DNA of 58,326 nucleotides. Origin: a virus (taxonomy: Duplodnaviria; Caudoviricetes). The notes below the pieces were generated by a model. The model made no database searches. It was given only the letters and a program-made list of their open reading frames with translations, and had not been told where the DNA came from. Location of the stretch: positions 1 through 58,326 of IMG/VR virus record IMGVR_UViG_3300020042_010505, one strand, 5' to 3'. Positions 9,873-58,326 of the stretch are shown here, one piece after another. The first letter of the stretch is position 1, and each line of letters starts with the position of its first letter. Position numbers and translations under genes: made by a program.

Positions 9873-9883
9873 AATATATAACA

Positions 9884-10444: not shown

Positions 10445-10446
10445 AA

Positions 10447-10478: not shown

Positions 10479-10504
10479 CGGTATAAGATTTAAAAATAAA
10501 GGTT

Positions 10505-26207: not shown

Positions 26208-26208
26208 A

Positions 26209-41817: not shown

Positions 41818-41849
41818 TTTGGAGGAGCAAAAATTTTTTCGTACATTTA
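41818..41849 (+). promoter_or_regulatory. Early promoter
   Basis: TTTG-N20-TACATTTA; AAGGTT-ATG downstream. Confidence 0.75.
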
Positions 41850-41867
41850 TTCATATAAATTAAGGTT

Positions 41868-42135: not shown

Positions 42136-42144
42136 ATATTTATA
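42136..42144 (+). promoter_or_regulatory. Putative late promoter motif ATATTTATA
   Basis: Heads the leader-bearing gene cluster. Confidence 0.55.
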
Positions 42145-42157
42145 ATAAACTTAATCA

Positions 42158-42919
42158 ATGATTGGGCTGATGTCTCTTTTAAAAGAAATCCAAGGAAAAC
42201 CAAAAGCCATATTTATGGCAGGTCCTGCGGGTTCAGGTAAATCATTTATATCTCAAAAATTAGTTCCTTCCAATTTTACTACTATTAATGTAGATGACAC
42301 CTATGAGGAACTACTTAAATCCTCAGGTATTGGAATGAAATTAGCCTTAATGTCTCCGGATGAATTAAAAAAATCAGGTGAGTTAATGGGTCAAGCAAGA
42401 AGAACTACAGACACTAAACTTCAAGATGCTTCTCAAAATGCTAAAAATTTATTAATTGATAGTGTAGGGGGTTCATCTAAAATGCTACTTAGGAAAAGAG
42501 ATGAATTAGAGAATTTAGGTTACGACACGTTTATGTTAATGACTTATGTATCTCCTATAACTTCATTAGAACGTAATAAAAATAGAGACAGATCTTTATT
42601 ACCAAGTATTGTAATTAGATCCTGGCGTGATGTTAATAACAATGTTAATACATACAGACAAGCATTTAATGATGATTTTACAATAGTAAATTTAAACCTA
42701 GAAGATGCTAATTTAAATTTTGATGCAGAATATATTTTTAAAACATATATTCAACCTTTAGGACAAATAGGTAAAGAAAAAACTCCTGAAGAAAAAGAAA
42801 AATCAAAAATAGAAGTTAATCAAATCTACGCAGACATAAAACAATTACTATCAAATCAACCCGAATTTGATACTATAGAACAAGCAAAAACAAAAATCAC
42901 TAAATTTATAAACAAATGA
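42158..42919 (+). CDS. P-loop kinase (zeta toxin/AAA_33-like) with leader
   Basis: MIGLMSLLKE; AIFMAGPAGSGKS; INVDD; SLERNKNRDR lid. Confidence 0.85.
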   Translation: MIGLMSLLKEIQGKPKAIFMAGPAGSGKSFISQKLVPSNFTTINVDDTYEELLKSSGIGMKLALMSPDELKKSGELMGQARRTTDTKLQDASQNAKNLLIDSVGGSSKMLLRKRDELENLGYDTFMLMTYVSPITSLERNKNRDRSLLPSIVIRSWRDVNNNVNTYRQAFNDDFTIVNLNLEDANLNFDAEYIFKTYIQPLGQIGKEKTPEEKEKSKIEVNQIYADIKQLLSNQPEFDTIEQAKTKITKFINK

Positions 42920-43287
42920 AATTATTAGACTTATTAAACGAAGTAGAACAAAAAGAAAAACCAACAGTAAAGTATGATGCAAAAGAAGAACCAACATCTG
43001 TAATAGATGAAGTTGGTAAGTTTTTTGTTGTTAAAAAACCAAGTAAAGATTCTAAAAAAGAAGGTATGGTATATGAAGCTACTGTATTTGATGAAATTAA
43101 AAGGGATGAAACTAAAGGTGTTTACAAAAACAAATCTGAAGCAAATCGCCACGCTGCCGAAGCCTTAAAAGAATATGACATGCAACTTAAAGAAATGGAA
43201 GATGCTATGGAAGCTTATCGCAGTGCTAAAAAAGACATAGAAGAAAAGAAAAACTCAGCAAAAGAAAAAATTCAAAAGCTTAAATAA
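42916..43287 (+). CDS. Hypothetical protein with leader
   Basis: MKLLDLLNE; C-terminal coiled coil. Confidence 0.85.
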   Translation: MKLLDLLNEVEQKEKPTVKYDAKEEPTSVIDEVGKFFVVKKPSKDSKKEGMVYEATVFDEIKRDETKGVYKNKSEANRHAAEALKEYDMQLKEMEDAMEAYRSAKKDIEEKKNSAKEKIQKLK

Positions 43288-43289
43288 TA

Positions 43290-45911
43290 ATGAATTCATT
43301 AACAAAAGTCTTATTAGAAGATCTTTTGGACGCGGATAATAAAAAAGTAACCGCTATATATGGTGGAGGATTTAAACCTCCTACTAAAGGTCACTTTGAT
43401 GTTGTTGCTAAAGCATCCGAACAAAACCCAGAAATTGATGACATTTTAATTTATGTTGGAGGTGGTGAACGTGATGGAATTTCTCAAGGTGAATCTATTC
43501 AAATTTGGGAATTATATAAAAAATATCTTCCAATTAAAACTGTAATAGAACCAGTAAATGCACCTATAGGTAGTATTTTACGTTATGCTAAAGAACATCC
43601 TGAAGAAACAGTACTTTGGATAATAGGTGCTCGTGAAAATAATCCTGAAGATTTTGCTGATATTTCTTCTAGAACTAGAACATTAGAAAAATATCCAAAC
43701 TTACAATTACGTGTTATTCAAACATCAGGTGGTGTTAGTGGAACAGCAGCTCGTAATGCAGTTAAAAACAATAATAAAGACCAATTTTTTTATTTAATCC
43801 CAGACATTCCCGAAAAGGAACAAGTATGGGATATTGTATCTCCTGTTGTTAAAGAAGAAAAAATAACCGAAGTAGGCGAAGCAAATCTATCTCCCTATAA
43901 GTGGAAAGAAGTTGATAAAAACGGTTGGGTTACTTTTATTGAATTTACAACAGAAAGTGAAACTAAATATAGGGTAAATTTAACAACTGTAGAAATTGTA
44001 GATCCTGAAGGTGGAAATATAAATCTTGAAGCTATAGATATTGAATTTTCCGCAAAACCTAAAGGAGCTGAAGGTTCTTCATCTAAAATAGTAGTTAATA
44101 AAGGTGAAATATATAAAGTAATGTCTACTCTAACAGCTATAATTAAACATTACGTAAAGGAAATTGAAGCTAAAGCTATAATATATTCCCCATCTAAAAA
44201 ATCAGATGAGGAAGATTTTGGTACTCAAAGAGACAATCTATATAAAGCATTTATTTCTAAAGCCATACCAGGAGCAAAATTTACTAATTCTAAAAACAAT
44301 ATAATAGCAATTTTACCTAATTCAGTTAATGAATTAGTAACAGATACAGAAGTTATTTGTGATAATTGTGATTGGAAATGGCCTATAGCAGATGGTGGAG
44401 ATGATTTATATATCTGCCATAAGTGTGGACACGATAATAATCCTGAATTACAAGAAGGTAGAAAAAAGAAACCTGACCCTAAAAAAGGAACAGGTAAAAA
44501 ACCTGAAAAATCCGGCCGTAGATTATACACCGATGAAGACCCTAAAGATACAGTTAGTATTAAATTTAAAACTAAAGAAGATATAGTTGATACTTTAAAT
44601 AAAAAACAATTTAAAGCTAAATCTCATGCTCGTCAATCTCAAGTAATTAATCTAATCCATCAACGAGTAAGAGCATCATATAACAAATCAAAAGACCCTG
44701 AAGTAAGATCAAGATTAAAACGTGCTTTAGATTATATTGAAAAACGTAAAGAAATGTCTAAAAAGAAAACAGAGCGTTTACGTAAAATGAAAGAATCATT
44801 TGAATTACAAGAAGAAATAAATCCCTCTACTAAATTAAAATCTAATATTATTAATGAAGGTCGTTACGATAGTATTTCAAGACAATTAGCTAGTTATACT
44901 CTTAAAGGTTGGAAAGATGATTTTGAACACAATGAACCTACCGGAAGAGTAGAATTTGCAGTTGGCCCTGATGGAGATTTAGAATATGAGGATTTAAAAT
45001 TTTCATATAAAGGTGTAGCAGTATTTGCAGGTATTCAAACATATTCATATAATGGATCAGCTAGGTTAACCTCAGGAGAAATAAAAATAACCTATTCCAT
45101 TCCAAAAAGTATGCTCCCCCAAGGTTGGGAAAAAATTTATATGGATTTAATTTCTGTTATTCGCCATGAAATTGAACATCTAACCCAAGGTGGTATCAAT
45201 GTAAAACCAGGTAAAGAAATTTTAGATCTCCCTCTTAGACGTTTAGTTATTAAATATCCTGATACTTTAAGATATATACTTTTACCCTCAGAAAAAGATG
45301 CAAATGTTCAAGGTTTATATTTAAAAGCTAAAAAATCAAGACGTCCTTATGCTGAAGTAGTAGATGAGTATATTAGAGATTTACTTAAAATTACTAATAA
45401 AAATGATGTTGATATTCTTAAAGGAATGTATGATAAAAGAGCAAAGGAATTAAATTTACCTGCTATTTTAGAAAATGATTTCTTTGGTTTAAATAAATTA
45501 TCAAGACAATTTATTAAAGAAGCTTTAATAGAAACTTGGAATCCTAAGGAATCTTTTGTATCTTTATCTAAATATATGATAGACAATGGAATGAATATCA
45601 AACCATTACCTAAAATTAAGATAATTTCAAATGATAAAGAAAATGCTTCTAATCTTTTAGGTAAAACTGCTTATTATAATCCAAATGATAAATCTATTAC
45701 TTTATATACTAAAGATAGACACCCAAAAGATATATGTCGTTCATTTACTCATGAAATGGTACACCACGAACAAAATTTAGAGGGTAGGTTAAATAATATC
45801 AACACAACAAATACCAATGAAGACGGAGCATTACCTGAAATTGAAAAAGAAGCTTACGAAAAAGGAAATATGATGTTACGTAATTGGGAGGATAGTATAA
45901 AAAATGTATAG
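43290..45911 (+). CDS. Polyvalent protein: HxGH-type nucleotidyltransferase, Zn ribbon, basic module and two HExxH peptidase-like domains
   Basis: GGFKPPTKGH and SGTAAR; CDNC/CHKC; RHEIEH; THEMVH. Confidence 0.85.
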   Translation: MNSLTKVLLEDLLDADNKKVTAIYGGGFKPPTKGHFDVVAKASEQNPEIDDILIYVGGGERDGISQGESIQIWELYKKYLPIKTVIEPVNAPIGSILRYAKEHPEETVLWIIGARENNPEDFADISSRTRTLEKYPNLQLRVIQTSGGVSGTAARNAVKNNNKDQFFYLIPDIPEKEQVWDIVSPVVKEEKITEVGEANLSPYKWKEVDKNGWVTFIEFTTESETKYRVNLTTVEIVDPEGGNINLEAIDIEFSAKPKGAEGSSSKIVVNKGEIYKVMSTLTAIIKHYVKEIEAKAIIYSPSKKSDEEDFGTQRDNLYKAFISKAIPGAKFTNSKNNIIAILPNSVNELVTDTEVICDNCDWKWPIADGGDDLYICHKCGHDNNPELQEGRKKKPDPKKGTGKKPEKSGRRLYTDEDPKDTVSIKFKTKEDIVDTLNKKQFKAKSHARQSQVINLIHQRVRASYNKSKDPEVRSRLKRALDYIEKRKEMSKKKTERLRKMKESFELQEEINPSTKLKSNIINEGRYDSISRQLASYTLKGWKDDFEHNEPTGRVEFAVGPDGDLEYEDLKFSYKGVAVFAGIQTYSYNGSARLTSGEIKITYSIPKSMLPQGWEKIYMDLISVIRHEIEHLTQGGINVKPGKEILDLPLRRLVIKYPDTLRYILLPSEKDANVQGLYLKAKKSRRPYAEVVDEYIRDLLKITNKNDVDILKGMYDKRAKELNLPAILENDFFGLNKLSRQFIKEALIETWNPKESFVSLSKYMIDNGMNIKPLPKIKIISNDKENASNLLGKTAYYNPNDKSITLYTKDRHPKDICRSFTHEMVHHEQNLEGRLNNINTTNTNEDGALPEIEKEAYEKGNMMLRNWEDSIKNV

Positions 45912-46443
45912 GTTAACAGATTTATATAAACAAATTAAAGAGGAATCAACAGAACCTTCTCAACCGCAATATAAAATTTATTGTGATATGGATGGTGTTT
46001 TAACTGATTTTGATGAAAACTTTAAATCTTTAAACCTAAAAAATTTATCCCCAGATCAATATAAAAGTAAATATGGTATAGAAAAATTTTGGGATTTTAT
46101 AGACATTGATAATAAACTTAAGTTTTGGACTGAAATGAAATGGATGCCTGATGGAAAAGAATTATGGGATGCTATTAAAGATAAAAATCCAACTATATTA
46201 TCGGCTCCCTCAAAAAGTCCCTCTTCTCGTTTAGGAAAAAGATTATGGATTGGTAATAATATTCCCGGAACACCTTTAATTTTAGCATCAGCTGAATCAA
46301 AAAAGAATTATGCTAGAAAAGATGCAATACTTATAGACGATAGAATTTCAAATATTAATGATTGGAACAATGCCGGTGGTATTGGAATTCTTCATACTTC
46401 AACATCATCAACATTAACTAAATTAAGCAAATATGGCCTTTAG
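45904..46443 (+). CDS. HAD-family 5'(3')-deoxyribonucleotidase-like protein with leader
   Basis: IYCDMDGVLTDF, ILSAP and LIDD; N-terminus MYRLTDLYKQIKEE. Confidence 0.88.
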   Translation: MYRLTDLYKQIKEESTEPSQPQYKIYCDMDGVLTDFDENFKSLNLKNLSPDQYKSKYGIEKFWDFIDIDNKLKFWTEMKWMPDGKELWDAIKDKNPTILSAPSKSPSSRLGKRLWIGNNIPGTPLILASAESKKNYARKDAILIDDRISNINDWNNAGGIGILHTSTSSTLTKLSKYGL

Positions 46444-46744
46444 AAGAGTAATCATTAGTGGAGAAAAAATAAATGACACCAAATCAGATTTAGAAGGCTT
46501 TTTCACTACAAGAGTATTCCAAACTAATTACCCTGGATTAAAACATAAAATAATTGTTTCTCCTTTTAAAGAAGACACACTTATAATAGATGTGAATGGG
46601 GATGGAGCAGATACAGTATCTAAAAAAATTAAAGATATTGGTATAAAATATAAAATGAAAGTTTTAATTAAAGTAGAAAAACCAATGTCAGCAGTTAATG
46701 AAGCAAAATTAACTAACATTATTAAAGATATATTAAAAAAATGA
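46433..46744 (+). CDS. Hypothetical protein
   Basis: 103 aa; C-terminal VNE-AKLTNIIKDIL leader-like helix. Confidence 0.75.
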   Translation: MAFRRVIISGEKINDTKSDLEGFFTTRVFQTNYPGLKHKIIVSPFKEDTLIIDVNGDGADTVSKKIKDIGIKYKMKVLIKVEKPMSAVNEAKLTNIIKDILKK

Positions 46745-47313
46745 GTAAAGATTCAGTTTTAAAAAAAGAGTTTAAACAACGTGATGTACAACGTCTTCGT
46801 AACCTTGTTCAAGGTAAATATGGCGAAAGTACTACTATGGGAACCGGTTATACAAAAACTAAAGAATTTCATAGTGAAGGAGATAAATGGGAAGAAGATG
46901 GAAGAACTTGGGTTATTAAAAATGGCTTAAAACAAAATATTACAAAATTAGATAAGGCAAAAGAAGGTATCGTTTTACCTTTATTTTGCCCTTCTTGTTC
47001 TCGTACTATGAAACCCCATTTAGATAAAAGATGGTTTGTAATGTATGGACATTGCTTTAATTGTCAAGTAGATTTTGAATCAAATTTAAGAAAACAAGGT
47101 AAATTACAAGAATTTGAAGATCAAGTAGTTAATTCAAATATTGAAGGTGTAACTAAAGATCTTGAAGTTTGGTTTAATGAATTAATTAATGAAAAACAAG
47201 AATTTATCACTGAATCCGGGGATATTGAAAATTGGGAAGGTTCTGGAAAACAACATTTATTAAAATATAAAAAGGAAGCTTTAGAATTTTTACAAAAACA
47301 AAAAAGAAAATAA
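46741..47313 (+). CDS. Zinc-finger hypothetical protein
   Basis: CPSC...HCFNC; GDKWEEDGRTW. Confidence 0.85.
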   Translation: MSKDSVLKKEFKQRDVQRLRNLVQGKYGESTTMGTGYTKTKEFHSEGDKWEEDGRTWVIKNGLKQNITKLDKAKEGIVLPLFCPSCSRTMKPHLDKRWFVMYGHCFNCQVDFESNLRKQGKLQEFEDQVVNSNIEGVTKDLEVWFNELINEKQEFITESGDIENWEGSGKQHLLKYKKEALEFLQKQKRK

Positions 47314-47319
47314 TTAAAA

Positions 47320-47925
47320 ATGACACCAACAATCATAGCAGCGTTTATCTCAGGAGTATTAGGACCAATACTTTTATTACTAGTTAAGTATTACTATGAA
47401 AAAAGTAAAACAAAACCAGATATGGTAACTGAAACATTAGAAGTTAGTGAACGAGTTATGCATAAGTTAGACCAAATCAAAGAAGATTTTAATGCAGACC
47501 GTGTTTGGGTAACTCAATTTCATAATGGAGGTCATTTTTATCCAACCGGAAAATCAATTGCAAAATTTAGTGTAGTATACGAAACTGTAAACATTGGAGT
47601 AGGATCTATACAATCTAACTTCCAAAATATCCCAGTAAGTCTTTTTAGCAAATCAACAAACGAATTATTAGATAACGATATAATTTCAATTGTAGATTAT
47701 AAAGATCCTACAATAGAGACTTATGGCCTTAAATATGTTGCCGAAGAATCTAACTGCAAATCCGGATATTTATTTTCAATTAAAACTATTGAGGATAAGT
47801 TTATTGGATGTTTAGGAATTGATTACACAAAACGCAAAACTAAACTTGATTTAGAATCAATAACACAATTATCTATCGATGCTGCTATAATAGGAGGAGT
47901 CCTTAATAATCATTTACAAAAGTAA
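47320..47925 (+). CDS. Single-TM GAF-domain protein (architecture like T4 holin T)
   Basis: N-terminal TM; ADRVWVTQFHNG; FIGCLGIDY. Confidence 0.75.
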   Translation: MTPTIIAAFISGVLGPILLLLVKYYYEKSKTKPDMVTETLEVSERVMHKLDQIKEDFNADRVWVTQFHNGGHFYPTGKSIAKFSVVYETVNIGVGSIQSNFQNIPVSLFSKSTNELLDNDIISIVDYKDPTIETYGLKYVAEESNCKSGYLFSIKTIEDKFIGCLGIDYTKRKTKLDLESITQLSIDAAIIGGVLNNHLQK

Positions 47926-47949
47926 TAATAAATTAAATATAATTTAAAA

Positions 47950-50900
47950 ATGAAAGACATACAGAAAATTAAAGAATTCTTTTCTAAACCTATGAACGAA
48001 GGTAATAAAGAATATTTTAAACCATTAATCCGTAAGAATAAATCCAATCCTAACTTTTTATATGTTGATATTTTATATCCTGTAGGCACAGGTTTTACAA
48101 CCGCTTTAGGTTCTAAAACTATGTTGGGTCAAGATAAAGAAGAAGGTGCTGCTAAAGCATTAGCAATGGGTAATGCTGTTGCTAAAAAATTAAAAGTAAA
48201 ATACGATCTTGAAGATATTGATGTAAGTGATTTAGAAAATGGTAAAGTAGAAGTATTTGCTGTATCTGATGATTTTATTAAGATAGATTCTCCTTCATTA
48301 GATGAAGCTAAAATTTCACATATTGTTGGAGGTATTCCTTATAAACGTACTCGTAAACCAAAGGAAGATAAGATTGAAATTTTTCAAAAATTAGACGAAC
48401 CTACTAAAATTAAATTAATAAAAAAATTCAAAGAAAAAAATTGGGAAGTTAATCCAAATGAAAAAGGAGGTCTTACTGCTACGAAAAAATTAATGTCACT
48501 ACCTGAAGAAATAGATATTAATGATCCAATGCTTATAAAATTTAGAGCAGCAAAATATGATAGAGAAAAATTAAATTCTCAACCACAATCTACCCCTCTA
48601 AAACCAACAAAAACAATCAACCCAGACTATAAAGCAATTAAAAATGCTTCAAAAATCGATTTTCTTCAAAAAGAAAAAGATCAATTACTAAGAGACATGG
48701 AGCAAGAAGCAGAACCAGAAGGTGGCCCTATTGCTGATAGATATGGGCGTGAATTAAATAAAATTGATCAAGCAATTTCTAAATTATCAGGTCAAGGAGA
48801 TTCCGAAACCAATGTGTATATGTCTAAAGATGAGATCGAAAGACGAGCAGCGATGATGAAGGAAGGTGAAGATTTTTCGTTTGAAAATATTAAAGTTGGT
48901 ACTGTTTTAAATTTAAAAGATGGTGAAACCTGGAAAGTTGTTAAACTTACAAGTAATGGAGGAGTTTTAGCAGCACCTGTTGGAAAAACTAAAGATAGTT
49001 ATGTATCTATAGCAATTGAATTTCCAATTAATATATTAAAAAGAGAAGTAGCTTCTTTAAATGAATCTAAATCAAATCCTGAAATAGATAAACTTTTAAA
49101 AGTTATGAATGATAAAAAAGCAGGACCAGAATATAAAAAAGCATTAATAGATTTAATAGCAATGGCTGAGAAAAAATCAGGTAAAACTATTCAAACTAAA
49201 AAAGAAGCATTACTTGCTTTAGATTATGTTGAACCATTAATGAATGAAGCAAATGGATTTAAATCAGGTAAAGAATTTATTAATATAAAATTACAAAAAT
49301 ACCCAAAAGCTATAGCTAAAGTTAACCAATTAATTAATATGATTGGTGAATCAAAGTTTACAATAGAAATGGCTAATTGGATTTTTGATTTCTTTAATAA
49401 TGCTTCATATGAAAGTCCAATAAATGAATCTAAATCTATTTCTGACTATAAAGTTGGTGATATCCTTAAATTTAAGGATGGTGAAGATTGGAAAGTAATG
49501 AAGGTAAAAGACAATGTTAATAAACTTGTTATTAAACCTTACAACGAAAAAGCTAAAAAAGGAAACGTTAGTTTAGAAATTGATGTTGATTTAGATTACC
49601 TTAAAAATAATTTAAATGAAGCTGAAGCTCAAGAACAATCATTGTATAAAAATTGGGATCAATTTGAAAAACCTAGTAAAATTAAAGTTTATTTAAATAG
49701 TGGTAAAACATTAGAAATTAGTCCTTTAAAATTAAAAGGAGGAAAAAGAGTTTATGATGCAATTTTACAAGCATTTATAGATGATAGATTTGATATTACA
49801 AATAAAGTAATACAAGGAATGACCAATAACTTGTCTGAAGATAAAGAAAAAAACAAACTATACTATAAAAATATTGCTTTTTTAGATAAAAAAGGGTTAA
49901 CTAATAACCGATTTTCTGATAAAGATATACAAATAGCTAATAAAATGTTGTCTCAAGGACAATTTAAATTAGATGAAGCTAAAGAAGAAGATAAAGTAGA
50001 TACAATTACAATGGATATTCCTTTATTTCTTCGTATGTTAGAATATTCAAGAGAAGATGCCTCTCAAGACATGGATTTACATGATGTTACCGAAAAAGCA
50101 AATAAATTAGGTAAAGAAAGAGGTATTTTATCTATGGAAGACTATGAAGAAATTGTAGGTGCTGCTGAAGAAATTAAAGAAAATAATGGTATTAATTACT
50201 CTAAACTAATTGATTTAATCAAATCAGCGGATAATCCAAAAAACCAACCCATCTATTACAACTCAGATCAAGGAGTAATTAATGTTGGGGGTGTGGGATA
50301 TGATAAAGGAAATTTAATTAAAGTATTCAATTCCGAACCAGGACAATCTTTAGATATAAAAACTTTATTTTATAAAGCTAACCAATCCCCCGAAGAAACT
50401 AAAAATGCTATTGAATCTATGGATCCTAGTATTAAAGTTGAAATTGGATATGGTTATGGAAATGAACCTTTTGTTAAATACATTAAATCAATTAACGAAG
50501 CAGAATTAACCGAAGCAAATGTTCCTTCAAACATTAGGGATTTTGCTAAAAGAAAAGGTGTTTCTTCTTTAGTAAATAAAGTAGCAGGTTGGGCTGAAAA
50601 AGTAGGTGCTCGTATTGCTGGTGGAACTGCTGTTGGAATGAATTATGCTACCCTAGTATTAGATTTAGATTATAAACAACAAGGTGAAATTCGTATTAAC
50701 ACAGATAATGAAACAATCAAATTATATGATGAACCCGTTGATAATTTTAATGCTTTTCAACGTGTATATGTTGATTATAAAGATTTAGATGAAAATGTTG
50801 CTCCTAATCATAATGGAAAATCATCACCTTATGGATCAGGATATAAACCATTAGAGGAAAAAATTGCTAAAGCATTAGATAAAATTAATGAAGAACTTTG

Positions 50901-51024
50901 TCCTGCAGGTAAAGCATATATTAAAAGAAGACAAGCAGCAGGTGAAAAATCATCAGCCTATCTTTCAGGTCGCGCCGTTAAAGTATGTAAGGGACAAATG
51001 TCAGGTAAGAAAAAGAAAAAATAA
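47950..51024 (+). CDS. Modular polyprotein, putative capsid-internal cargo
   Basis: About 13 small modules delimited by [LIM]-x-E. Confidence 0.85.
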   Translation: MKDIQKIKEFFSKPMNEGNKEYFKPLIRKNKSNPNFLYVDILYPVGTGFTTALGSKTMLGQDKEEGAAKALAMGNAVAKKLKVKYDLEDIDVSDLENGKVEVFAVSDDFIKIDSPSLDEAKISHIVGGIPYKRTRKPKEDKIEIFQKLDEPTKIKLIKKFKEKNWEVNPNEKGGLTATKKLMSLPEEIDINDPMLIKFRAAKYDREKLNSQPQSTPLKPTKTINPDYKAIKNASKIDFLQKEKDQLLRDMEQEAEPEGGPIADRYGRELNKIDQAISKLSGQGDSETNVYMSKDEIERRAAMMKEGEDFSFENIKVGTVLNLKDGETWKVVKLTSNGGVLAAPVGKTKDSYVSIAIEFPINILKREVASLNESKSNPEIDKLLKVMNDKKAGPEYKKALIDLIAMAEKKSGKTIQTKKEALLALDYVEPLMNEANGFKSGKEFINIKLQKYPKAIAKVNQLINMIGESKFTIEMANWIFDFFNNASYESPINESKSISDYKVGDILKFKDGEDWKVMKVKDNVNKLVIKPYNEKAKKGNVSLEIDVDLDYLKNNLNEAEAQEQSLYKNWDQFEKPSKIKVYLNSGKTLEISPLKLKGGKRVYDAILQAFIDDRFDITNKVIQGMTNNLSEDKEKNKLYYKNIAFLDKKGLTNNRFSDKDIQIANKMLSQGQFKLDEAKEEDKVDTITMDIPLFLRMLEYSREDASQDMDLHDVTEKANKLGKERGILSMEDYEEIVGAAEEIKENNGINYSKLIDLIKSADNPKNQPIYYNSDQGVINVGGVGYDKGNLIKVFNSEPGQSLDIKTLFYKANQSPEETKNAIESMDPSIKVEIGYGYGNEPFVKYIKSINEAELTEANVPSNIRDFAKRKGVSSLVNKVAGWAEKVGARIAGGTAVGMNYATLVLDLDYKQQGEIRINTDNETIKLYDEPVDNFNAFQRVYVDYKDLDENVAPNHNGKSSPYGSGYKPLEEKIAKALDKINEELCPAGKAYIKRRQAAGEKSSAYLSGRAVKVCKGQMSGKKKKK

Positions 51025-51314
51025 TGGATAGTAATCGTTTACAAGAATTAGTATCTGAATCATTACGCGATTGGTTTAAAAAAGAAGACTGGGTGCGTAT
51101 TGATACTCAAGGTAATATTACTGGCCCTTGTGGAACGATGAAAAAAGGGGATGCTACAACTCGTTGCTTACCTCGTAAAAAAGCTCAATCATTATCTAAA
51201 GCTGAACGTGCTAAAACTTCACGTAAAAAAGCATCGGCTTCTCGTAAAGGAAAACAATTTGTATCAAATACAAAAAAAGCAAAATACAAAAAAGGTACAT
51301 ATAATAAAAATTAA
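51024..51314 (+). CDS. Small basic Cys-containing protein with leader
   Basis: MDSNRLQELVSE then SLRDWFKKEDWVRI...CG...RCLP. Confidence 0.85.
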   Translation: MDSNRLQELVSESLRDWFKKEDWVRIDTQGNITGPCGTMKKGDATTRCLPRKKAQSLSKAERAKTSRKKASASRKGKQFVSNTKKAKYKKGTYNKN

Positions 51315-51315
51315 T

Positions 51316-51324
51316 ATATTTATA
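51316..51324 (+). promoter_or_regulatory. Putative late promoter motif ATATTTATA
   Basis: In the 26-nt gap before 51341. Confidence 0.55.
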
Positions 51325-51340
51325 ATCATATATTTAAAAA

Positions 51341-53197
51341 ATGACAAAATTTAACCTTAAAAAAGCTATATTAGAAAATAAAGCTACATTCTTTAGTTCA
51401 TTAACCGAGGGTCAATTCTCTTGGATTACTCAAGATACAAACCAACAAATTGGATCGGAAAATGAAAATACTCTTCCTTTTGTTTATATGTTTGATAACA
51501 AAGGCATGAAATGGTTAGAAAAAAATTATGAAGGATATGGTGTATTCGGTAATAAAGATTACTACGAATTATTAGACCAAATGAATGGTGGAACAGGTGA
51601 TAGAAGTCGAGGCATTAATTTAGCTTTTGATAAAGAATCCACAGAGTCAGGTGAAGTATTATATCCGGCTTTAGTAGTTAATCCAAATTTTAATTGGAAA
51701 TCTCATGATTTTACTGAAGAACCTGAAAATGATCCTAATCAATCTTGGTATCAAGAACCTGAAGAAGAGGATTATAATCTTGATGATGATGAAGATGATT
51801 TTGCTGAATATTTGCAAGAAGCTTCTGCTGATTCTACACCTTATGGAAACTATATTAATAAAGCACGAGCAAAATCACATTTAACTAAAAAAGATGGAGA
51901 TGTATATGGTATTGATAAATCTGGTAAAGGACATAAAATAACGGATGCTGCGGATTTAGATAAGTATACTAAATTTACAATTAAGTCTAAAGAATTAAAT
52001 GAAGGAAAAATGTATTACCATGTATTAGAAGATATGGGTTATGGTGAAATAGGACATGAAGGTGTTTATGACACTGAAGAAGAAGCTCAAGATAGAGCGA
52101 ATAATTTATCTAGAACCTACCCCGATTCATCCTTTTATGTTGAACCTTCAACTAGCGAAGAGGAGCCATATAATGTTACTTCCTCAGATTATGATCCTAA
52201 TCTTGATATAGATGAAGGTAAAAAAGAAACACCTATTGACGAAGAAATATTTGGATTTCCAAATGTAGATATAAATTTTCCAACTCTAAAAACAAGATAT
52301 ATTGCTAAAAAATTTGCAGAATATATGTCTAATAAAGAAGGACAAAGATTTACAGTAACTTTAAATTCACCGGATGGTCCTTCATTTGATTTAGATTTAG
52401 ATGGTGAAGAGTATGATGGTGGTAGTTATCTTATTGCAAAAAATGGAGATATTATAAACGTCGCTCTCCGTGAAAGACCAGTATACGGTAACATTTCAAT
52501 GTTGGATGAAACCGAAAAACCAAAAACAAAAATGAAAAAATCAGAATTAAAAGAAAAAATCAAAGAAATGGTTTTATCAGAAATGGAAAAGGATATAAAC
52601 ATTTCCGATGAAACCCCTGAAAATGAAGAAGATTTCTTAGCTGAAGTTGATCGTATTTTAGCTGAAGCAGATAAAGACGAAGAAACAGATACGGAAACAA
52701 CAGATACTGAAACAGCAGACGCAGAAGTTGAAACTCCTGAAGGAACTGAAGATGTTGAAGTAACAGATACAACAACAACTGACCAAGTTGATCCTAACGT
52801 AAAAGCAGTACAAGATGCTTTAACACAAGCTCAAGCAGCTGCTCAAACATTAGGAGATGCTAAATTAACAGATCAAATTGGTAATACAATTACATTCTTT
52901 ACACGTACACACGTAGTTGATAAAGGTGCTGTAGCTGAAGGTGAAGAAATGGAAGAAGGTAAAAAAGAATATTATTCTGGAAAATCGGATAGTGATTTTA
53001 ATGCTGATATCGAAAATCAATATAAAAATTATAAAGCTGGAACCTACGATAAATTAAAAAATAAAGAATATTATGATGATGCTGAATCCGATGATGCTGC
53101 TCATATCAATGCATTAGAAAAAGACATGAAAGATGATAAAGATTCATCTATGAAAATTAAAGAAGTAGTTTTCCCAATGTGGCAACGAATTAAATAA
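51341..53197 (+). CDS. Modular acidic polyprotein, putative capsid-internal cargo
   Basis: MTKFNLKKAILE leader; modules after LTE, LQE, LNE, IDE, LDE, LSE and LAE. Confidence 0.85.
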   Translation: MTKFNLKKAILENKATFFSSLTEGQFSWITQDTNQQIGSENENTLPFVYMFDNKGMKWLEKNYEGYGVFGNKDYYELLDQMNGGTGDRSRGINLAFDKESTESGEVLYPALVVNPNFNWKSHDFTEEPENDPNQSWYQEPEEEDYNLDDDEDDFAEYLQEASADSTPYGNYINKARAKSHLTKKDGDVYGIDKSGKGHKITDAADLDKYTKFTIKSKELNEGKMYYHVLEDMGYGEIGHEGVYDTEEEAQDRANNLSRTYPDSSFYVEPSTSEEEPYNVTSSDYDPNLDIDEGKKETPIDEEIFGFPNVDINFPTLKTRYIAKKFAEYMSNKEGQRFTVTLNSPDGPSFDLDLDGEEYDGGSYLIAKNGDIINVALRERPVYGNISMLDETEKPKTKMKKSELKEKIKEMVLSEMEKDINISDETPENEEDFLAEVDRILAEADKDEETDTETTDTETADAEVETPEGTEDVEVTDTTTTDQVDPNVKAVQDALTQAQAAAQTLGDAKLTDQIGNTITFFTRTHVVDKGAVAEGEEMEEGKKEYYSGKSDSDFNADIENQYKNYKAGTYDKLKNKEYYDDAESDDAAHINALEKDMKDDKDSSMKIKEVVFPMWQRIK

Positions 53198-53218
53198 AAA
53201 TAAATAAATAATAAAAAT

Positions 53219-53389
53219 ATGAACACAACAGAAATTTTAGAAAAAATTGAAGCACTTTACGAATCATTTAAAGCAGAACATGCTGGAAAATCAAAAGCTG
53301 CTCACGGCCGCGCTCGTAAAGCATTAGGTGAAATCAAAAAATTGATTACCGAATATAGAAAAGCGTCAATTAATGAAGATAAAAAATAA
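53219..53389 (+). CDS. Histone H1-like (Hc1-type) nucleoid protein (56 aa, absent from the ORF track)
   Basis: KAAHGRARKALGEIKKLITEYRKAS matches the KAAG.RARK...L.K...EYRK.S motif of Hc1-type proteins. Confidence 0.75.
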   Translation: MNTTEILEKIEALYESFKAEHAGKSKAAHGRARKALGEIKKLITEYRKASINEDKK

Positions 53390-55775
53390 TATAACTGAAA
53401 AAAAACTTACTAAATCAGAATTAGAAGTAAGGGAAAAAGTAATTAAGGATTTAAAAAAAAATAAGTCTTCACTTGTTAAACGCTATGGCAAAGATGCCGA
53501 AGCTGTTATGTATGGACGAGCAACTAATATAGCTAAAAAAATGGCAGAATCAGAAAATAAAAACCGCATTAAAGAACTTGTAAAAAAATCTTTAATGAAA
53601 GAAGATGAAGTAACTCAAGATAAAGATCATAAAATTACCCAAGAGGGTAATCTTTGGGTTCTTGTCTATAAAAATAAAAATAAGACATTTAAACATCATT
53701 TTGGTTCAAAAAAAGAAGCTGAAGAATTTTGGAATAATAACAAAAATTCAGATAATTCTATGAAATTTGAAGAAGGTAAAAAAGAAGATGTTACGGGAGA
53801 TGGTAAAATTGATTCTAAAGATTACTTAGCTAAACGTGATATTGCTATTCAAAAAGCAAAAAGTAAAATGAATGAAGCAGATATGTTTGGTGAATTTGAA
53901 GTTGGAGATATAGTTAAATATAAAGATAAAGATCATGAAGTAACAAGAATAGAACCAGATAGAATTTACATTAGACCTACTGGGACTAGCATGATTGGTA
54001 AGTTAAATCATTTTTGGGTAAAACGAGAAGATTTAAACGAAAAGGCTACTAAAGTAAAACCTAATATGAACGAAGATTTAGATTTAGGTCACGAAGATAA
54101 CGAACCACATATGATTAAAGGTGATTTATATCGTATTGGAAAATATGCTATGGAATTATATGCTATGGCTGAAAAATTAGAAGAAACAGGACAAGAAATT
54201 GATTTCCCATCTTGGTGGCAAGCAATGATTACAGATGCATCTACTAAAATGGTTAAAGCAAAACATTACCTTGATTTTGAATTAAAAGAACCAGCGATTG
54301 ATGCTGTTGTAGGTAAATTAACAGGTAAAAAACCTCCTATGATGGAATCCGCTTATGATTATGTTAAAACCCCTAAAGAATATATCACTTTACAATTATC
54401 AGATTTTTTTAGAGTTCCTAAAACTAATTTAATGTCTTTTAATTTAGATGGTACGGATGATATTGAAGCTTTAACACAAGCCTTAAATTCAACATCTACA
54501 CAAGGTACAGAAAGGTATTTAAAATCATCAATAAAATCTGCTCAAGATCATTTTAATGTAACTGAAGGTTTTTTAGATAGAATGAAAGCTAGTGTAAAAG
54601 GAGCTGTTGCTGGTGTTGGTCAAGCTGCTAAAAATATAGGATCTGCTGTTAAAGGAGATTCATCTCAGTTTAAGAGTGTATCTAATACAGCTAATATGGC
54701 TAAATTAGGTCAAAAAGTAAAAACTTTTGGAAAAGAAATTGATGATGTTATTAATGATATTAATAAATTATTTCCTAAGGAAAAACTTGATAAAGACCCA
54801 GAATTAAAGGGAAAAATTGAAAAATATCTAGCAACATTAAATCAAACCAAAACCCTAAATACAGCTATTTCCTCCGTAGATGAAAATATGTTTACTGGAA
54901 GAAATAATATGAATAGGGGTTCAAGTTATTCTGATTATTCTTCGGATAGTGATATAAGTATTGATATTTTAGCATCTAAAATTGCTAAAGCTCTTAAAAA
55001 TCCTGAAAATCAAGATGAGGATGATCAAAATAATATTAAGCAAGCTAGAAAAGCTCTAAATCTAGGTGACATAGAAATAGCTGGAAAAATAATTAAACCA
55101 TATATAACTGAAAAAAGAGCTAAACAATTAAAAGAGTATACTGTAAATGATTTTCGATATATTACACCGGGAAGTGGTCGTCCTAAGATTGATCCCGCTT
55201 TATTTGCTAAGCTTATGCCTAAATCTGCTAAGACATGCAAAGAGGCTGAGGCTAGAATAAAGATGTATAATGGCTCTACAATGTTTGTTCATTCGCAGTA
55301 CTTTGTAGTTACACCAAATGGTAATATGCCTAATAAGCCTAAATATGAAATTCACCAATCACAGTACTACAATAACGACTATAATGCACCTGCAAATTTA
55401 AAGGGTCAAGATGTTAATGTTACCTTTTTAACTATATTCGATGTTACAAATGGAGAAGTTGAACTTGGCGTTTGCTATGTAGATACTAAGGTGTTTTTAG
55501 ATGAGTATAAAGTGGTATTTGAATTATTAAAAAGGGTAAGTGAAGATATTAGACAAAACTCCCCAGGAGAACTTGATGGGGAATATGAAGGAAAACCACA
55601 AAAAATACAAGGTGCTGATATATACGATACCTTAAAAGATATCCTTGATATTTCTAATTCAGAAAATGACTTTATAAGAAAAATAACTGATTCACTTACA
55701 GATGAAACTAGTTCTTTATCTAAAAGCACTGAAAAAAAATTAAGAAATTGGTACAAAAAGAACGTTACTAATTAA
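53373..55775 (+). CDS. Modular polyprotein, putative capsid-internal cargo
   Basis: Modules after ITE, MAE, MKE, MNE, LNE, MME, VTE, VDE, LKE and VSE; DVTGDGKIDSKD EF-hand/dockerin-like loop. Confidence 0.85.
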   Translation: MKIKNNITEKKLTKSELEVREKVIKDLKKNKSSLVKRYGKDAEAVMYGRATNIAKKMAESENKNRIKELVKKSLMKEDEVTQDKDHKITQEGNLWVLVYKNKNKTFKHHFGSKKEAEEFWNNNKNSDNSMKFEEGKKEDVTGDGKIDSKDYLAKRDIAIQKAKSKMNEADMFGEFEVGDIVKYKDKDHEVTRIEPDRIYIRPTGTSMIGKLNHFWVKREDLNEKATKVKPNMNEDLDLGHEDNEPHMIKGDLYRIGKYAMELYAMAEKLEETGQEIDFPSWWQAMITDASTKMVKAKHYLDFELKEPAIDAVVGKLTGKKPPMMESAYDYVKTPKEYITLQLSDFFRVPKTNLMSFNLDGTDDIEALTQALNSTSTQGTERYLKSSIKSAQDHFNVTEGFLDRMKASVKGAVAGVGQAAKNIGSAVKGDSSQFKSVSNTANMAKLGQKVKTFGKEIDDVINDINKLFPKEKLDKDPELKGKIEKYLATLNQTKTLNTAISSVDENMFTGRNNMNRGSSYSDYSSDSDISIDILASKIAKALKNPENQDEDDQNNIKQARKALNLGDIEIAGKIIKPYITEKRAKQLKEYTVNDFRYITPGSGRPKIDPALFAKLMPKSAKTCKEAEARIKMYNGSTMFVHSQYFVVTPNGNMPNKPKYEIHQSQYYNNDYNAPANLKGQDVNVTFLTIFDVTNGEVELGVCYVDTKVFLDEYKVVFELLKRVSEDIRQNSPGELDGEYEGKPQKIQGADIYDTLKDILDISNSENDFIRKITDSLTDETSSLSKSTEKKLRNWYKKNVTN

Positions 55776-55783
55776 AAAACAAA

Positions 55784-56269
55784 ATGAAAAAAAGTGAATT
55801 AAGAGATAAAATTAAATCTCTTGTCCAACAAACATACAAATCTAAATCTATTGATTCAAATAATGGAGGAGAGATTACTCTTGATGCTGATAAATTTCCA
55901 GTGTTAGCTAAATTTCCAAAATTAAAAGACATAATTGTTGATTTATTAACTACTCAATATGAGGTCTTTATGAAAGCTATAGAATGGGTTGCACCACGTC
56001 CAACAACATTTAGAATTGTGCTAGGCAATGATGAAGATTTTTTATTAATTTACACAGAAAGAAGTTGGATTGCCCAGATTGAAGGTAAAAAATATTATTT
56101 ATTAAATTTAGGAGAAGAAGAGCAAGCCGCCGAATCTATTTCAAGATTACTTTCATATGGAGCTCCGGCACCTGCGGAAGGTGAAACTCCAGCTGAAGAA
56201 ACAGCTGAAGCTCCTACAGAAACTCCAGAAGAAGCTCCTGCTGAAGAAGAAGAAACAACAACAACATAA
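55784..56269 (+). CDS. Hypothetical protein with an acidic tail
   Basis: MKKSELRDKIKSLV N-terminus; APRPTTFRI motif. Confidence 0.85.
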   Translation: MKKSELRDKIKSLVQQTYKSKSIDSNNGGEITLDADKFPVLAKFPKLKDIIVDLLTTQYEVFMKAIEWVAPRPTTFRIVLGNDEDFLLIYTERSWIAQIEGKKYYLLNLGEEEQAAESISRLLSYGAPAPAEGETPAEETAEAPTETPEEAPAEEEETTTT

Positions 56270-56270
56270 T

Positions 56271-57389
56271 ATGGACATATTAGATAAGTTTTTTAAAAAA
56301 TATTCATATAAATTTGATAAAGGATATCCTGACATGAATAATGAGCAGGATGTTTTTTTGTTAGAATCACTTTTAAGTAAAGTAATAAATGAAAATTTTA
56401 AGTTACTTAAAGAAGAAGATACAGAAAATGGAATTGATATTTTAAAAAAAGAATTAAATTTAACAGATGAAGATTTTATAAAATTATCATCCGTTAGATA
56501 TAAATTATTAGTTCCAAGATCAGAAAGATATAATTACATAGAAAAAATTACTAAACTCCCCGGATTTAGTTATGATGTTAATGTTCCCGGTTCCTCTATT
56601 GGTGGACTTAAATATAATAACACTATTTTTCTTTTAAAACCTTCAGGAGCTCAAGGTAGAGCATCCTCAGGTACTGGAAATGAAGATATCATAGTAAATG
56701 AAATTAACAAATATATTGAAGAAGGTGCTATAAATATAATATTTAATGCTCCTAATAAAAATTTAACAATTAATAATGTTAAAGAAGTAATCCCTGTAGG
56801 TTATGATGTAGCTGGAGGTAAAAAAGCAGATATTATTATTAAAGCTAATAAAGATTATCCAATTTCCATTAAACAAGATAATGCTGGATTTTGGGAAAGC
56901 TCAGATACAAGATATAAAAATTTAGTGTTAACTTTATCAAAGAAAATAGCAAATGGTGATTTTGCACCTGAATTAGTATTTCAACCTTTTACCGATAAAT
57001 TAGGCAACCAAAAAGAAGGTATTAATACAATGTATAATGAAATAACTAAAACTAAAGTATCAGGAATAATTGTTACAGATCTTCCTACAAATGATGAAAA
57101 TGAAATTATTTTTGGCTCGGATAAAGCTACAATAATATATAGAAGTTACTCTCCATCTGATTTTGAGTTAAAAGAAAATACATTATATATAAAAGTTTCT
57201 AAAATTTTAGAAAATATATCCGATGTTGAAGAATTTGATCTTGAACCTGTACTTAATATTAGACATGATTCTACTAGAGCATCTACAGGAGGATTAAGAG
57301 CAACTGTCCAACCAAAAAATAAACTGTACAGTGATGATCAACTTACAGGAAATAAAATTGAATTATCATATAATGATATTATATCATAA
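56271..57389 (+). CDS. Restriction-endonuclease-like PD-(D/E)xK protein with N-terminal leader
   Basis: Start moved to ATG 56271, just after the upstream stop; GNE...KKADI...ISIKQ motif. Confidence 0.7.
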   Translation: MDILDKFFKKYSYKFDKGYPDMNNEQDVFLLESLLSKVINENFKLLKEEDTENGIDILKKELNLTDEDFIKLSSVRYKLLVPRSERYNYIEKITKLPGFSYDVNVPGSSIGGLKYNNTIFLLKPSGAQGRASSGTGNEDIIVNEINKYIEEGAINIIFNAPNKNLTINNVKEVIPVGYDVAGGKKADIIIKANKDYPISIKQDNAGFWESSDTRYKNLVLTLSKKIANGDFAPELVFQPFTDKLGNQKEGINTMYNEITKTKVSGIIVTDLPTNDENEIIFGSDKATIIYRSYSPSDFELKENTLYIKVSKILENISDVEEFDLEPVLNIRHDSTRASTGGLRATVQPKNKLYSDDQLTGNKIELSYNDIIS

Positions 57390-57397
57390 TATTTATA
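57389..57397 (+). promoter_or_regulatory. Putative late promoter motif ATATTTATA
   Basis: Fills the 11-nt gap before 57401. Confidence 0.55.
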
Positions 57398-57400
57398 ACC

Positions 57401-58030
57401 ATGGATTTAAAAAAACTCATTAAAGAAGTCTTAGAATCTCGCAAACATGATTGTGGTTGTGGGTGTGGAGATAAATGCGGAAAAGCGCCTATACTTAATG
57501 AAAATCTCCAGTCACGTATTTTGATGACTGATAGTATGAAACACCATATAGACACTAAAACACCGCTATTTGAAACAACTTTACCATATGGTTCTAAAGA
57601 ATATTTAGATTTATGGGTTGAAGCAAGATATTTGTATTCTCGTGGTGCTTTAAACGTTGAAGGTATTGATAAAGAAAAAATTACTGAAACTCATTTAGGT
57701 GAATATGGAATATTTGAAGGTCAATTAGTTCCTTTAGATATGCCTATGCTTGAAGAAGGTTTATTAGCAGAAGCTGAATATCAAGGACGTAAAGTTCAAT
57801 TAGGTAAACCATCACAAGGTGATAGTAAAAAGTTTAAAGTATATGTTAAAAACGCTAAAGGTAAAGTTGTAAAAGTTAACTTTGGATTTGGTGGCAAATC
57901 AGCTAAAGGTAAGAGAATGGTAATTAAAGTTAAAAATCCAAAACGTCGTGCTGCTTTTAGAGCAAGACACAATTGTGAAAACCCCGGACCACGTTGGAAA
58001 GCACGTTATTGGTCTTGTAAAGCTTGGTAA
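57401..58030 (+). CDS. Modular protein with leader and a basic C-terminal module
   Basis: MDLKKLIKEVLE; CGCGC; LNE; LAE then AEYQGRKV...HNC...KARYWSCKAW. Confidence 0.85.
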   Translation: MDLKKLIKEVLESRKHDCGCGCGDKCGKAPILNENLQSRILMTDSMKHHIDTKTPLFETTLPYGSKEYLDLWVEARYLYSRGALNVEGIDKEKITETHLGEYGIFEGQLVPLDMPMLEEGLLAEAEYQGRKVQLGKPSQGDSKKFKVYVKNAKGKVVKVNFGFGGKSAKGKRMVIKVKNPKRRAAFRARHNCENPGPRWKARYWSCKAW

Positions 58031-58031
58031 G

Positions 58032-58326
58032 ATAATTAAACTAATTGACATATTAAACGAAGGTTCAAAAAATCCCGCTAATATAAAAGCGTACTATGAA
58101 GCATTGTGTAAGAATGAAAAAGTAAATCCTTTACCTGTAAAATTTAGTAATGTTGGACAGGGTGGAGCAGCATTATCTTACAATGCTAAAACAATGAAAC
58201 CTCTTTATATTTCTTTTAATACGGATAGAATGAAAGACCCAGAATATGCGATTATACACGAATTGACTCATCAAATAAAGTTAGAAACCGAACAAAATGC
58301 ATATTTAGGAAGGAAAGATCAATCCC
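58032..58326 (+). CDS. HExxH metallopeptidase-like protein with leader; apparent ATA start; truncated by the window end
   Basis: (I/M)IKLIDILNE-GSKNP...AIIHELTHQ; frame is open to the window end. Confidence 0.7.
   Translation, partial: MIKLIDILNEGSKNPANIKAYYEALCKNEKVNPLPVKFSNVGQGGAALSYNAKTMKPLYISFNTDRMKDPEYAIIHELTHQIKLETEQNAYLGRKDQS

Follow-up and report, generated by a model that had tools for sequence, protein, structure and literature searches.

In phage T4, internal proteins (IPI, IPII, IPIII), Alt and gp24 carry N-terminal capsid-targeting leaders that are removed by the prohead protease gp21. Gp21 cleaves after L/I-X-E; for packaging, residues 1–10 of IPIII are enough (PMC9026906). Residues 4 and 7 of IPIII (P7 and P4, counted back from the Glu at P1) matter for targeting, and residues 8 and 10 (P3 and P1) for processing (PMC9026906). 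The T-even internal proteins are diverse, with the targeting sequence alone conserved (PMC3012670, citing Repoila et al. 1994). Here, we describe similar leaders in IMG/VR record IMGVR_UViG_3300020042_010505, a viral contig of 58,326 bp that was analysed over its whole length and is called the window. They stand at the N-termini of unrelated proteins encoded in a 16-kb cluster (42158–58326) at its end.

The leaders are like those of T4 in their length of 6–19 residues, their L/I-x-E end with a hydrophobic P3 and, apparently, in the hydrophobic residues at P7 and P4. A Peptidase_S77 protease is present in the lineage, and the leader is the sole feature common to otherwise unrelated proteins. 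T4 has three small internal proteins and Alt, whereas about 10 tagged open reading frames (ORFs) lie in 16 kb here, and 11 were read in the corresponding cluster of the relative G001 (see below). Unlike that of T4, the predicted set of this lineage includes multidomain proteins of 600–1000 aa and recognisable enzymes of metabolic type. This lineage is also set apart from T4 by a second type of leader, which is longer and has two candidate sites (FDLKKxLxENK...L-x-E).

The polymorphic internal-protein loci of T-even phages likewise hold diverse ORFs with the targeting leader alone in common (PMC3012670). The present locus belongs to another phage lineage with a host of another phylum (Flavobacterium). 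It is also larger, and the head module begins directly downstream of it. Also unlike the T-even loci, the domain behind the leader changes (from nucleotidyltransferase to HAD-like), and whole domains are deleted.

In the giant phages phiKZ, 201phi2-1 and SPN3US, a protease related to gp21 cuts many head-internal proteins after Glu, and prohead targeting is the presumed role of the propeptides (PMC9026906, PMC5694885). According to the same sources S/A-x-E is the motif there and most of the propeptides are longer than 100 residues, whereas the leaders here are of T4 length and end in L/I/V-x-E.

In phage P1, about 30 N-terminal residues of the large enzyme DarB are a sufficient signal for its loading into the head, for delivery and anti-restriction (PMC9024508). 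P1 is not of the T4 type, and Dar loading is stepwise and dependent on other Dar proteins (PMC9024508). The systems are likened by description only. Encapsulin cargo-loading peptides are alike in principle: a short terminal tag sends unrelated enzymes into an HK97-fold shell. Those tags usually stand at the C-terminus, stay uncleaved and make direct contact with the shell protein, and no membership in that system is claimed here.

The head-targeting principle is already established for T-even phages (PMC3012670, PMC9026906). It is unusual that so many proteins are tagged, that they are so large and that enzymes are among them; the lineage and host are unusual as well. With a probability of roughly 0.6, we read the leaders as capsid-targeting propeptides of the T4 type, carried by a large set of cargo proteins. 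This reading draws on the enrichment of the leaders, their conservation and portability, the protease and leader-bearing head proteins of relatives, and the likeness to T4. The phage probably packs many enzymes beside its DNA.

Enrichment of the leader pattern

The window represents about one third of an aquatic T4-like myovirus genome. It is the entire viral contig, with a G+C content of about 30% and almost all genes on the + strand; its completeness was rated 36% (CheckV), and it ends before the head genes. With the 873-aa cluster protein as query, 32 related IMG/VR loci were found, two of them on long contigs: G001 (165,734 bp, completeness rated 100%) and G002 (128,324 bp). Positions 19951–58030 of the window are collinear with 79088–113140 of G001, at protein identities of 40–85%.

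Among cultured phages, the nearest relative is vB_FspM_immuto, a Flavobacterium phage of the genus Immutovirus (160 kb, NC_055915.1), which grows on Flavobacterium sp. LMO8. The capsid proteins of immuto and G001 share 54% identity, and the gene order is alike. A paper of 2023 in Nucleic Acids Research, on 7-deazaguanine modifications of DNA, reportedly mentions immuto 13 times (PMC10516641). A megablast search with the cluster against named phages gave no match.

The 13 N-termini quoted in the original prediction were all found at the ORFs named (Table 1), which confirmed the observation. Three of them lie at 9109–10444, where the pattern had also been reported. A strict pattern was defined as [LI]-x-E with the Glu at residues 6–15, and internal 10-residue segments of the same proteins served as baseline. 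The pattern was present at 10 of the 14 N-termini of the cluster and at 9 of 58 elsewhere in the window (Fisher p = 1e-4). The internal baseline was about 0.14 inside the cluster and about 0.08 outside. When Asp was substituted for Glu, only 3 of 14 cluster N-termini fitted, which was no enrichment.

The same was seen in the relatives (strict pattern, 16/30 in the region vs 25/188 outside in G001, p = 4e-6; 16/34 vs 26/138 in G002, p = 0.0014). A looser pattern gave 23/35 vs 38/184 in G001 (p = 3e-7), and its rate outside the region equalled the internal baseline. For the strict pattern, N-termini outside the region were just slightly above that baseline. Compared with its own internal baseline, the cluster gave a binomial p of about 1e-6 in both the window and G001. 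The region boundaries were drawn by synteny, yet were picked once the pattern was known, so that these p-values are somewhat generous.

These counts bear on the possibility that the leaders have no common function, and are ordinary N-terminal helices of Lys/Leu/Glu-rich proteins in an AT-rich genome, picked out by a selective reader. The strict pattern occurs in about 13–19% of N-termini outside the regions and about 20% of unrelated T4 genes, and the internal baseline is higher in the cluster (0.14–0.15 vs 0.08–0.11 elsewhere), as this explanation would have it. Two of the matches, those of the Hc1-like protein and the exonuclease, are clearly internal to domains. The enrichment over the cluster's own baseline and the lack of enrichment of the Asp variant argue against it, as does the conservation described below, and we consider it quite improbable.

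The exonuclease (41027) had been said to be without a leader. It does fit the pattern (ILE-15), inside its family domain (residue 16 at profile position 43), and the match is therefore one of chance. Five ORFs of the cluster (46433, 46741, 47320, 55784 and 56271) have no leader, or at most a weak one in the last two. A secretion signal was ruled out, since the leaders have neither a hydrophobic core nor a basic n-region.

A position matrix was built from the 13 window leaders. In G001, 16 N-termini scored at the 99th percentile of the null, compared with 2.2 expected, and 15 of the 16 lay at 97.5–124.5 kb. The G001 capsid, scaffold-like and 309-aa proteins, which were outside the training set, ranked 16th to 31st of 219. 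The matrix also ranked the substrates of T4 over the remaining N-termini of that phage (Mann-Whitney p = 0.0036). When the strict pattern was applied to a stretch of T4 with 53 genes, it flagged 17 of them, including all six N-terminally processed substrates known there.

A scan with a motif model, as had been proposed, enriched for the cluster, yet was too unspecific for calls on single proteins. Motif and matrix being of limited specificity, the evidence holds for the group and not for any one protein. The predicted "more than a dozen" cargoes can be kept as an upper bound and not as a count, in view of the share of unrelated T4 N-termini that the motif alone flags (about 20%), of the internal position of the nucleotidyltransferase leader in immuto and of the early-type promoter ahead of the 9109–10444 trio.

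Conservation and portability of the leaders

In the orthologues, the hydrophobic residues and the Glu of the leaders stayed at fixed positions, and the x residue and the codons varied. This conservation at the protein level was seen in orthologues down to 33% identity. In the kinase orthologues (n = 12, 33–82% identity), M1, L4, L7, L8 and E10 were invariant. The 123-aa protein had the leader MK(K)LxDLL[NR]E in 20 of 20 distinct orthologue N-termini among the matches listed. The leader of the 96-aa protein was kept in 7 orthologue variants, and L[IV][KN]E-9 of the 209-aa protein in 5 of 5, in which VLE-12 was not kept. The orthologue N-termini of the 800-aa protein differed (MKTKSKLEE, MTKKDLQKVLKE, MKTKNNIDKLKKLIEE), each with a hydrophobic-x-Glu (h-x-E).

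The HAD protein had 1359 metagenomic homologues at E <= 1e-5. An h-x-E leader was present in 120 of 120 among the matches listed, which were close relatives only (at least 58% identity). The orthologues of ORFs 46433, 46741 and 47320 were, like these ORFs, without an N-terminal h-x-E.

The Leu and Glu codons of the leaders varied synonymously. A DNA-level motif was ruled out as the cause of the leaders, because the residues were constant while these codons varied. The invariance of positions under varying codons, and the occurrence of the same leader on unrelated bodies, also argue against ordinary helices without a common function.

The proteins behind the leaders were unrelated, as had been claimed: when 19 proteins were compared all against all by blastp, no two matched at E < 0.01. 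The leader itself moved between such bodies, by leader swaps and domain swaps in related loci, which upheld the idea of a portable tag. In loci L025 and L013, a nucleotidyltransferase-type leader (MNSFTRILLEDLLE) heads a HAD-like DxD domain, the nucleotidyltransferase having been replaced. The long leader, M-x-x-F-D/N-L-K-K-x-L-x-E-N-K-(A/L)-T-F...L-x-E (the FDLKKxLxENK type), stands on at least five unrelated bodies. In L021_9669 it is fused straight to the modules that make up the C-terminal part of the 618-aa protein, and an N-terminal domain of about 340 aa is missing. A tblastn search with the 26-aa long leader against phages gave no match even at E <= 10.

Catalytic motifs follow soon after the Glu, in agreement with the original prediction: the kinase P-loop at residue 21, strand 1 of the nucleotidyltransferase at residues 20–24, and the HAD DxD at about residue 28. 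The leader precedes Pfam profile position 1–4 of the nucleotidyltransferase and NT5C/HAD domains. In AlphaFold2 models, the predicted local distance difference test score (pLDDT) of the leader was below 50 for the kinase and about 66 for the adenylyltransferase, and the bodies were confident.

The NT5C homologues of phages Cr30 and OLIVR1 begin directly at the catalytic strand, with the extension absent. Those of the marine T4-like phages Melnitz (a Methylophilales phage) and HTVC008M have an N-terminal extension. This comparison was made with these four named phages, and not with cellular proteins. The leader is a selected, portable protein module outside the enzyme folds.

In immuto, four more leader-bearing ORFs (gp095–gp092, NC_055915.1 102294–104354) lie upstream of the primase, with gp092 of the FDLKKFLVENKL type. 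This indicated that the leader genes of immuto are split in two by the primase–exonuclease pair.

Head genes, promoter-like motifs and the proposed packaging

A prohead protease of the T4 gp21 type (Peptidase_S77, PF03420) was found above cut-off in G001 (E 6e-31) and G002 (E 9e-32). It also matched phrog_207 (E 7e-58), and the gene is annotated in immuto. The protease of the relatives shares GEL(D/N)HP, G(V/I)SSRG and an N-terminal L-I-E-T with T4 gp21; we take the first two motifs to hold the catalytic His and Ser.

The leader cluster of G001 spans 99.9 kb to about 118 kb, and directly after it lie the large terminase and a portal-like gene (Gp20 in immuto). Then come a 309-aa protein (MKTLQQEYQLIKE), the protease, a Glu-rich scaffold-like protein (MANRDLLKE) and the major capsid protein (MSNVQQLLE); the terminase, protease and capsid protein were identified by phrogs. 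The N-terminal 60 residues of the capsid protein align to the T4 gp23 propeptide, with a conserved V-x-E just before the mature domain.

The window leaders were aligned on the Glu (n = 13). All 13 had Glu at P1 and L, I or V at P3; P7 was hydrophobic in 10, P4 in 7 and P5 in none. The frequency at P7 exceeded the baseline of 0.36 (binomial p = 0.0036). The T4 capsid-targeting leaders have the same pattern of hydrophobic P7, P4 and P3 with Glu at P1 (NC_000866: MKTYQEFIAE in IPII and IPIII, MAKINELLRE in gp24, MLKEQLIAE in gp22, MNEPQLLIE in gp21).

In the mechanism that we propose, the amphipathic leader helix, hydrophobic at P7, P4 and P3, would dock the protein onto the scaffolding core during prohead assembly. 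The gp21-type serine protease (Peptidase_S77) would then cleave after the Glu at P1 and set the mature protein free inside the head, where it would be retained in the virion until ejection into the host. The 16-kb cluster would extend about 5 kb beyond the contig end, to be followed by the terminase, portal, protease, scaffold and capsid genes. Its position next to the head module suggests a late-expressed store of head-internal proteins. The store would hold the zeta-like kinase, the NadD/PPAT-like adenylyltransferase fused to HExxH domains, the NT5C nucleotidase, large Lys/Glu-rich proteins and small basic proteins.

The leaders might also be true protease propeptides of proteins that are mostly, and above all in the case of the large Lys/Glu-rich ones, parts of the prohead core or scaffold, which would be degraded and expelled rather than delivered. 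T4 gp22, gp67 and gp68 have the same N-terminal motifs and are degraded (PMC9026906). The G001 scaffold-like protein, with 30 h-x-E sites and 19.6% Glu, resembles T4 gp22, and the 1024-, 800- and 618-aa proteins are rich in charged residues and match no family. On the other hand, the kinase, adenylyltransferase and nucleotidase are predicted as confident enzyme folds with catalytic motifs kept, which would be pointless in a disposable scaffold. That enzymes and inhibitors can be retained and ejected is seen in T4, from Alt and from the internal proteins (PMC9026906). We regard a core or scaffold role for most of the tagged proteins as rather unlikely.

The promoter-like motif upstream of the first cluster gene, TATTTATAA or (A)TATTTATAA, was found on the + strand of the window at 11446, 22443, 25438, 35138, 42137, 51317 (–51325) and 57390 (–57398). 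These 7 of its 9 + strand copies lie 11–28 nt upstream of start codons. The genes concerned are three operon starts of the cluster (42158, 51341 and 57401) and 11469, 22471, 25450 and 35165, three of the latter four being in the baseplate and tail region. In G001, 29 of 54 copies of TATTTATA lie at most 45 nt upstream of a start, compared with 5.7% of positions. The starts that they precede belong to portal, head, tail, baseplate and leader-bearing genes. The TATTTATAA motif is likely a late promoter. It is the reverse complement of what we take to be the T4 late-promoter word, possibly by coincidence.

A different, early-type promoter was found in the window at 628–10479 and 41838–41850. It consists of TTCGTATATTTAC, or (T)TCGTATATTTAC, and, some 25 nt further on and immediately ahead of the ATG, AAATAAAGGTT. 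This promoter heads 12 genes at 0.6–10.5 kb and an 82-aa gene at 41868, and gave 13 matches at <=2 mismatches, with 4 expected. Its –7-like TAnnTTT is presumably Bacteroidota-like. The three small leader-bearing ORFs at 9109–10444 have no orthologue in G001.

The early-type promoter bears on a further explanation, in which the leader is real and portable and serves another purpose, such as docking to a cytoplasmic complex, a membrane or a replication compartment, or control of stability. Three leader genes stand in an early-type operon, the cargo resembles enzymes of nucleotide and cofactor metabolism, which are normally cytoplasmic, and the kinase, cytidylyltransferase and NT5C group of pelagiphage HTVC008M adjoins replication genes. 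Against this, the capsid protein, scaffold-like protein and protease bear the same leader type, and the leader fits the T4 cleavage rule and, apparently, the targeting positions. The cluster also adjoins the head module and has a promoter-like motif in common with it. Such another purpose appears rather improbable to us.

Several points weigh against the capsid-targeting reading itself. The window, a 36%-complete contig, contains no protease or head gene of its own, so that the argument depends on synteny with the relatives. The 9109–10444 trio follows an early-type promoter at 8585–8597, with short gaps only. About 10 of the T4 genes flagged by the strict pattern have no known head role, a rate of about 20% that marks weak specificity. 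The matrix also gave high scores to T4 DNA ligase, T4 cd.2 and the G001 terminase and exonuclease. The frequency of a hydrophobic P7 did not differ significantly between pattern-bearing N-termini inside and outside the region (13/22 vs 13/33 in G001; 11/20 vs 10/30 in G002). The immuto counterpart of the nucleotidyltransferase leader helix is found about 274 residues into gp088, after an extra domain, and may belong to the enzyme fold or be an internal cleavage site. A literature search, in which supplements were not covered, found no virion proteome of this lineage, and we know of no described precedent for a packaged nucleotidase or adenylyltransferase.

A wider version of the capsid-targeting reading is tentative, and on the whole somewhat doubtful. 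In this version, an abundant group of aquatic T4-like phages, namely the immuto-like Flavobacterium phages and perhaps pelagiphages such as HTVC008M, would give at least 10% of the genome to evolvable tagged proteins that are loaded into the head and injected with the DNA. The injected enzymes, among them the zeta-like kinase, the NadD/PPAT-like adenylyltransferase with its metallopeptidase-like domains and the nucleotidase, could rewire nucleotide or NAD-type metabolism of the host, or blunt its defences, before phage gene expression. New cargo would be recruited merely by gaining a 10-residue tag.

If the capsid-targeting reading is true, T4-type targeting would extend from a few small coliphage proteins to a large, enzyme-rich cargo in abundant Bacteroidota phages. 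It would also provide a simple sequence rule for predicting injected proteins of T4-like phages, and the cargo list would point to new activities in host takeover or against defences. Should the reading be wrong, the caution is that an L/I-x-E motif alone over-predicts, as in the unrelated T4 genes (about 20%). The idea is directly testable, because a cultured relative and its host exist (vB_FspM_immuto and Flavobacterium sp. LMO8).

Genes of the cluster and other features of the window

The features of the cluster are collected in Table 1, together with the three ORFs outside it.

Table 1. Coordinates of leader-bearing and leaderless ORFs and of the promoter-like motif in the window
Position	Strand	Feature	N-terminal leader	Remarks
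9109–9405	+	Small ORF outside the cluster	MNNFDFRKYLKE	No family found
9425–9835	+	Small ORF outside the cluster	MIKLKTLLE	No family found
9884–10444	+	Small ORF outside the cluster	MSFDYRAYLKNNPLLEE	No family found
42137–42145	+	Promoter-like motif TATTTATAA		21 nt upstream of first cluster gene
42158–42919	+	P-loop kinase, zeta-toxin/polynucleotide-kinase-like, 253 aa	MIGLMSLLKE	Leader at 42158–42187
42916–43287	+	123-aa protein, no assigned function	MKLLDLLNE	No family above cut-off
43290–45911	+	873-aa multidomain protein	MNSLTKVLLE	
45904–46443	+	Putative NT5C-type HAD 5'(3')-deoxyribonucleotidase, 179 aa	MYRLTDLYKQIKE	Leader followed by acidic linker
46433–46744	+	103-aa protein	None	
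46741–47313	+	190-aa protein	None	Cys-rich ribbon
47320–47925	+	201-aa protein	None	N-terminal membrane helix
47950–51024	+	1024-aa Lys/Glu-rich protein	MKDIQKIKEFFSKPMNE (MKDIQKIKE)	Second site PMNE-17; no family found
51024–51314	+	96-aa protein with basic C-terminal tail	MDSNRLQELVSE	phrog_23735, E 2e-10
51341–53197	+	618-aa acidic protein	MTKFNLKKAILE; long leader MTKFNLKKAILENKATFFSSLTE	Sites ILE-12 and LTE-23; no family found
53219–53389	+	56-aa Hc1 histone-H1-like DNA-binding protein		PF07432, 38.4 bits vs cut-off 23.5
53373–55775	+	800-aa protein	MKIKNNITE	No family found
55784–56269	+	161-aa protein	Absent or weak	
56271–57389	+	372-aa protein	Absent or weak	phrog_12709
57401–58030	+	209-aa Cys-rich protein	MDLKKLIKEVLE	phrog_7595, E 5e-11
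58032–58326	+	Truncated last ORF, HExxH motif	Leader-like IIKLIDILNE	No ATG

By family, motif and predicted fold, ORF 42158 is a zeta-toxin/polynucleotide-kinase-like P-loop kinase. It matched Pfam Zeta_toxin at 35.8 bits (cut-off 22.3), and its Walker A motif, GPAGSGKS, was invariant. The AlphaFold2 model had a pLDDT of 89.6, with residues 1–3 and 5–10 below 50. The top Foldseek matches were zeta toxin 3q8x/1gvn (3q8x_D, E 2.6e-9), PezT and polynucleotide kinase.

The 873-aa protein begins with a putative NadD/PPAT-like adenylyltransferase, which is followed by a Cys-rich ribbon and a Lys-rich linker, and two HExxH segments lie in its C-terminal part. The motifs GGGFKPPTKGH (TKGH) and SGTxxR were invariant; we take (H/T)xGH and ISxTxxR-type motifs to define the HIGH-motif nucleotidyltransferases. 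Its model (pLDDT 84.5), in which the leader forms a helix at residues 3–15 (pLDDT about 66), matched NadD 8aih (E 3e-7) and PPAT (TM score 0.6–0.66) in Foldseek. The Pfam CTP_transf_like match, at 16.7 bits, was under the 21-bit cut-off. The HExxH segments had a weak likeness to metallopeptidases, with weak matches to Peptidase_M91 and DUF6782.

The HAD protein (45904) matched phrog_2643 (E 1.6e-25) and contains the motif CDMDGV. Its Pfam NT5C match of 22.1 bits was under the 24.8-bit cut-off; in this match, profile position 4 corresponds to residue 25. A phmmer search of this protein and the kinase against PDB sequences gave no match.

A group of genes like that of the window was seen in pelagiphage HTVC008M (Kyanoviridae, NC_020484.1, 106562–111718), consisting of the kinase-like gp129, gp130, annotated as a cytidyltransferase, and the NT5C gp134. 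Gp129 has a P-loop motif and starts MIPFILKE, gp130 starts MKTLKELL, and gp127, gp129 and gp130 have short h-x-E N-termini. The NT5C alone was matched by search, and the rest comes from the record annotation and from motifs as read.

ORF 53219, encoding the Hc1-like protein, was rejected as leader-bearing. It fits the pattern, but its N-terminus lies within the Hc1 domain (residues 5–56 correspond to profile positions 2–57). The protein is conserved in G001 and G002, and it may be a DNA-condensing internal protein.

The protein Atlas search with ORF 56271 returned unnamed viral clusters and a weak R.HinP1I lead, and no named family. Ahead of the last ORF, the TAA of the preceding gene (58028–58030) is followed by ATA ATT AAA CTA. 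This ORF would have either a non-canonical start (ATA or ATT) or a lost start codon.

In the relatives, further ORFs were inserted in or beside the cluster (G002 18026–18631 and 32720–33346; G001 96847–97527), at places where the window has none. They have no leader and are GIY-YIG homing endonuclease-like by their N-terminal motifs as read.

Elsewhere in the window, profile searches placed an early region at 0.6–11 kb and an endolysin-like gene. They also placed a baseplate module (25800–28059) that includes wedge proteins like gp25 and gp6, a primase at 40101–41030 and the exonuclease at 41027–41800. Scans of the window for tRNA genes and Rfam families detected nothing.

A 1287-aa ORF (15724–19587) lies in a G+C-rich island (0.38–0.42, vs about 0.30 elsewhere). 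It contains 10 repeated stretches that match phrog_25468 (E 2e-148), a family without known function. The 927 nt at 38401–39327 contain no + strand ATG-initiated ORF of at least 40 aa and gave no tRNA or Rfam match; a gene with an unusual start may lie within them.

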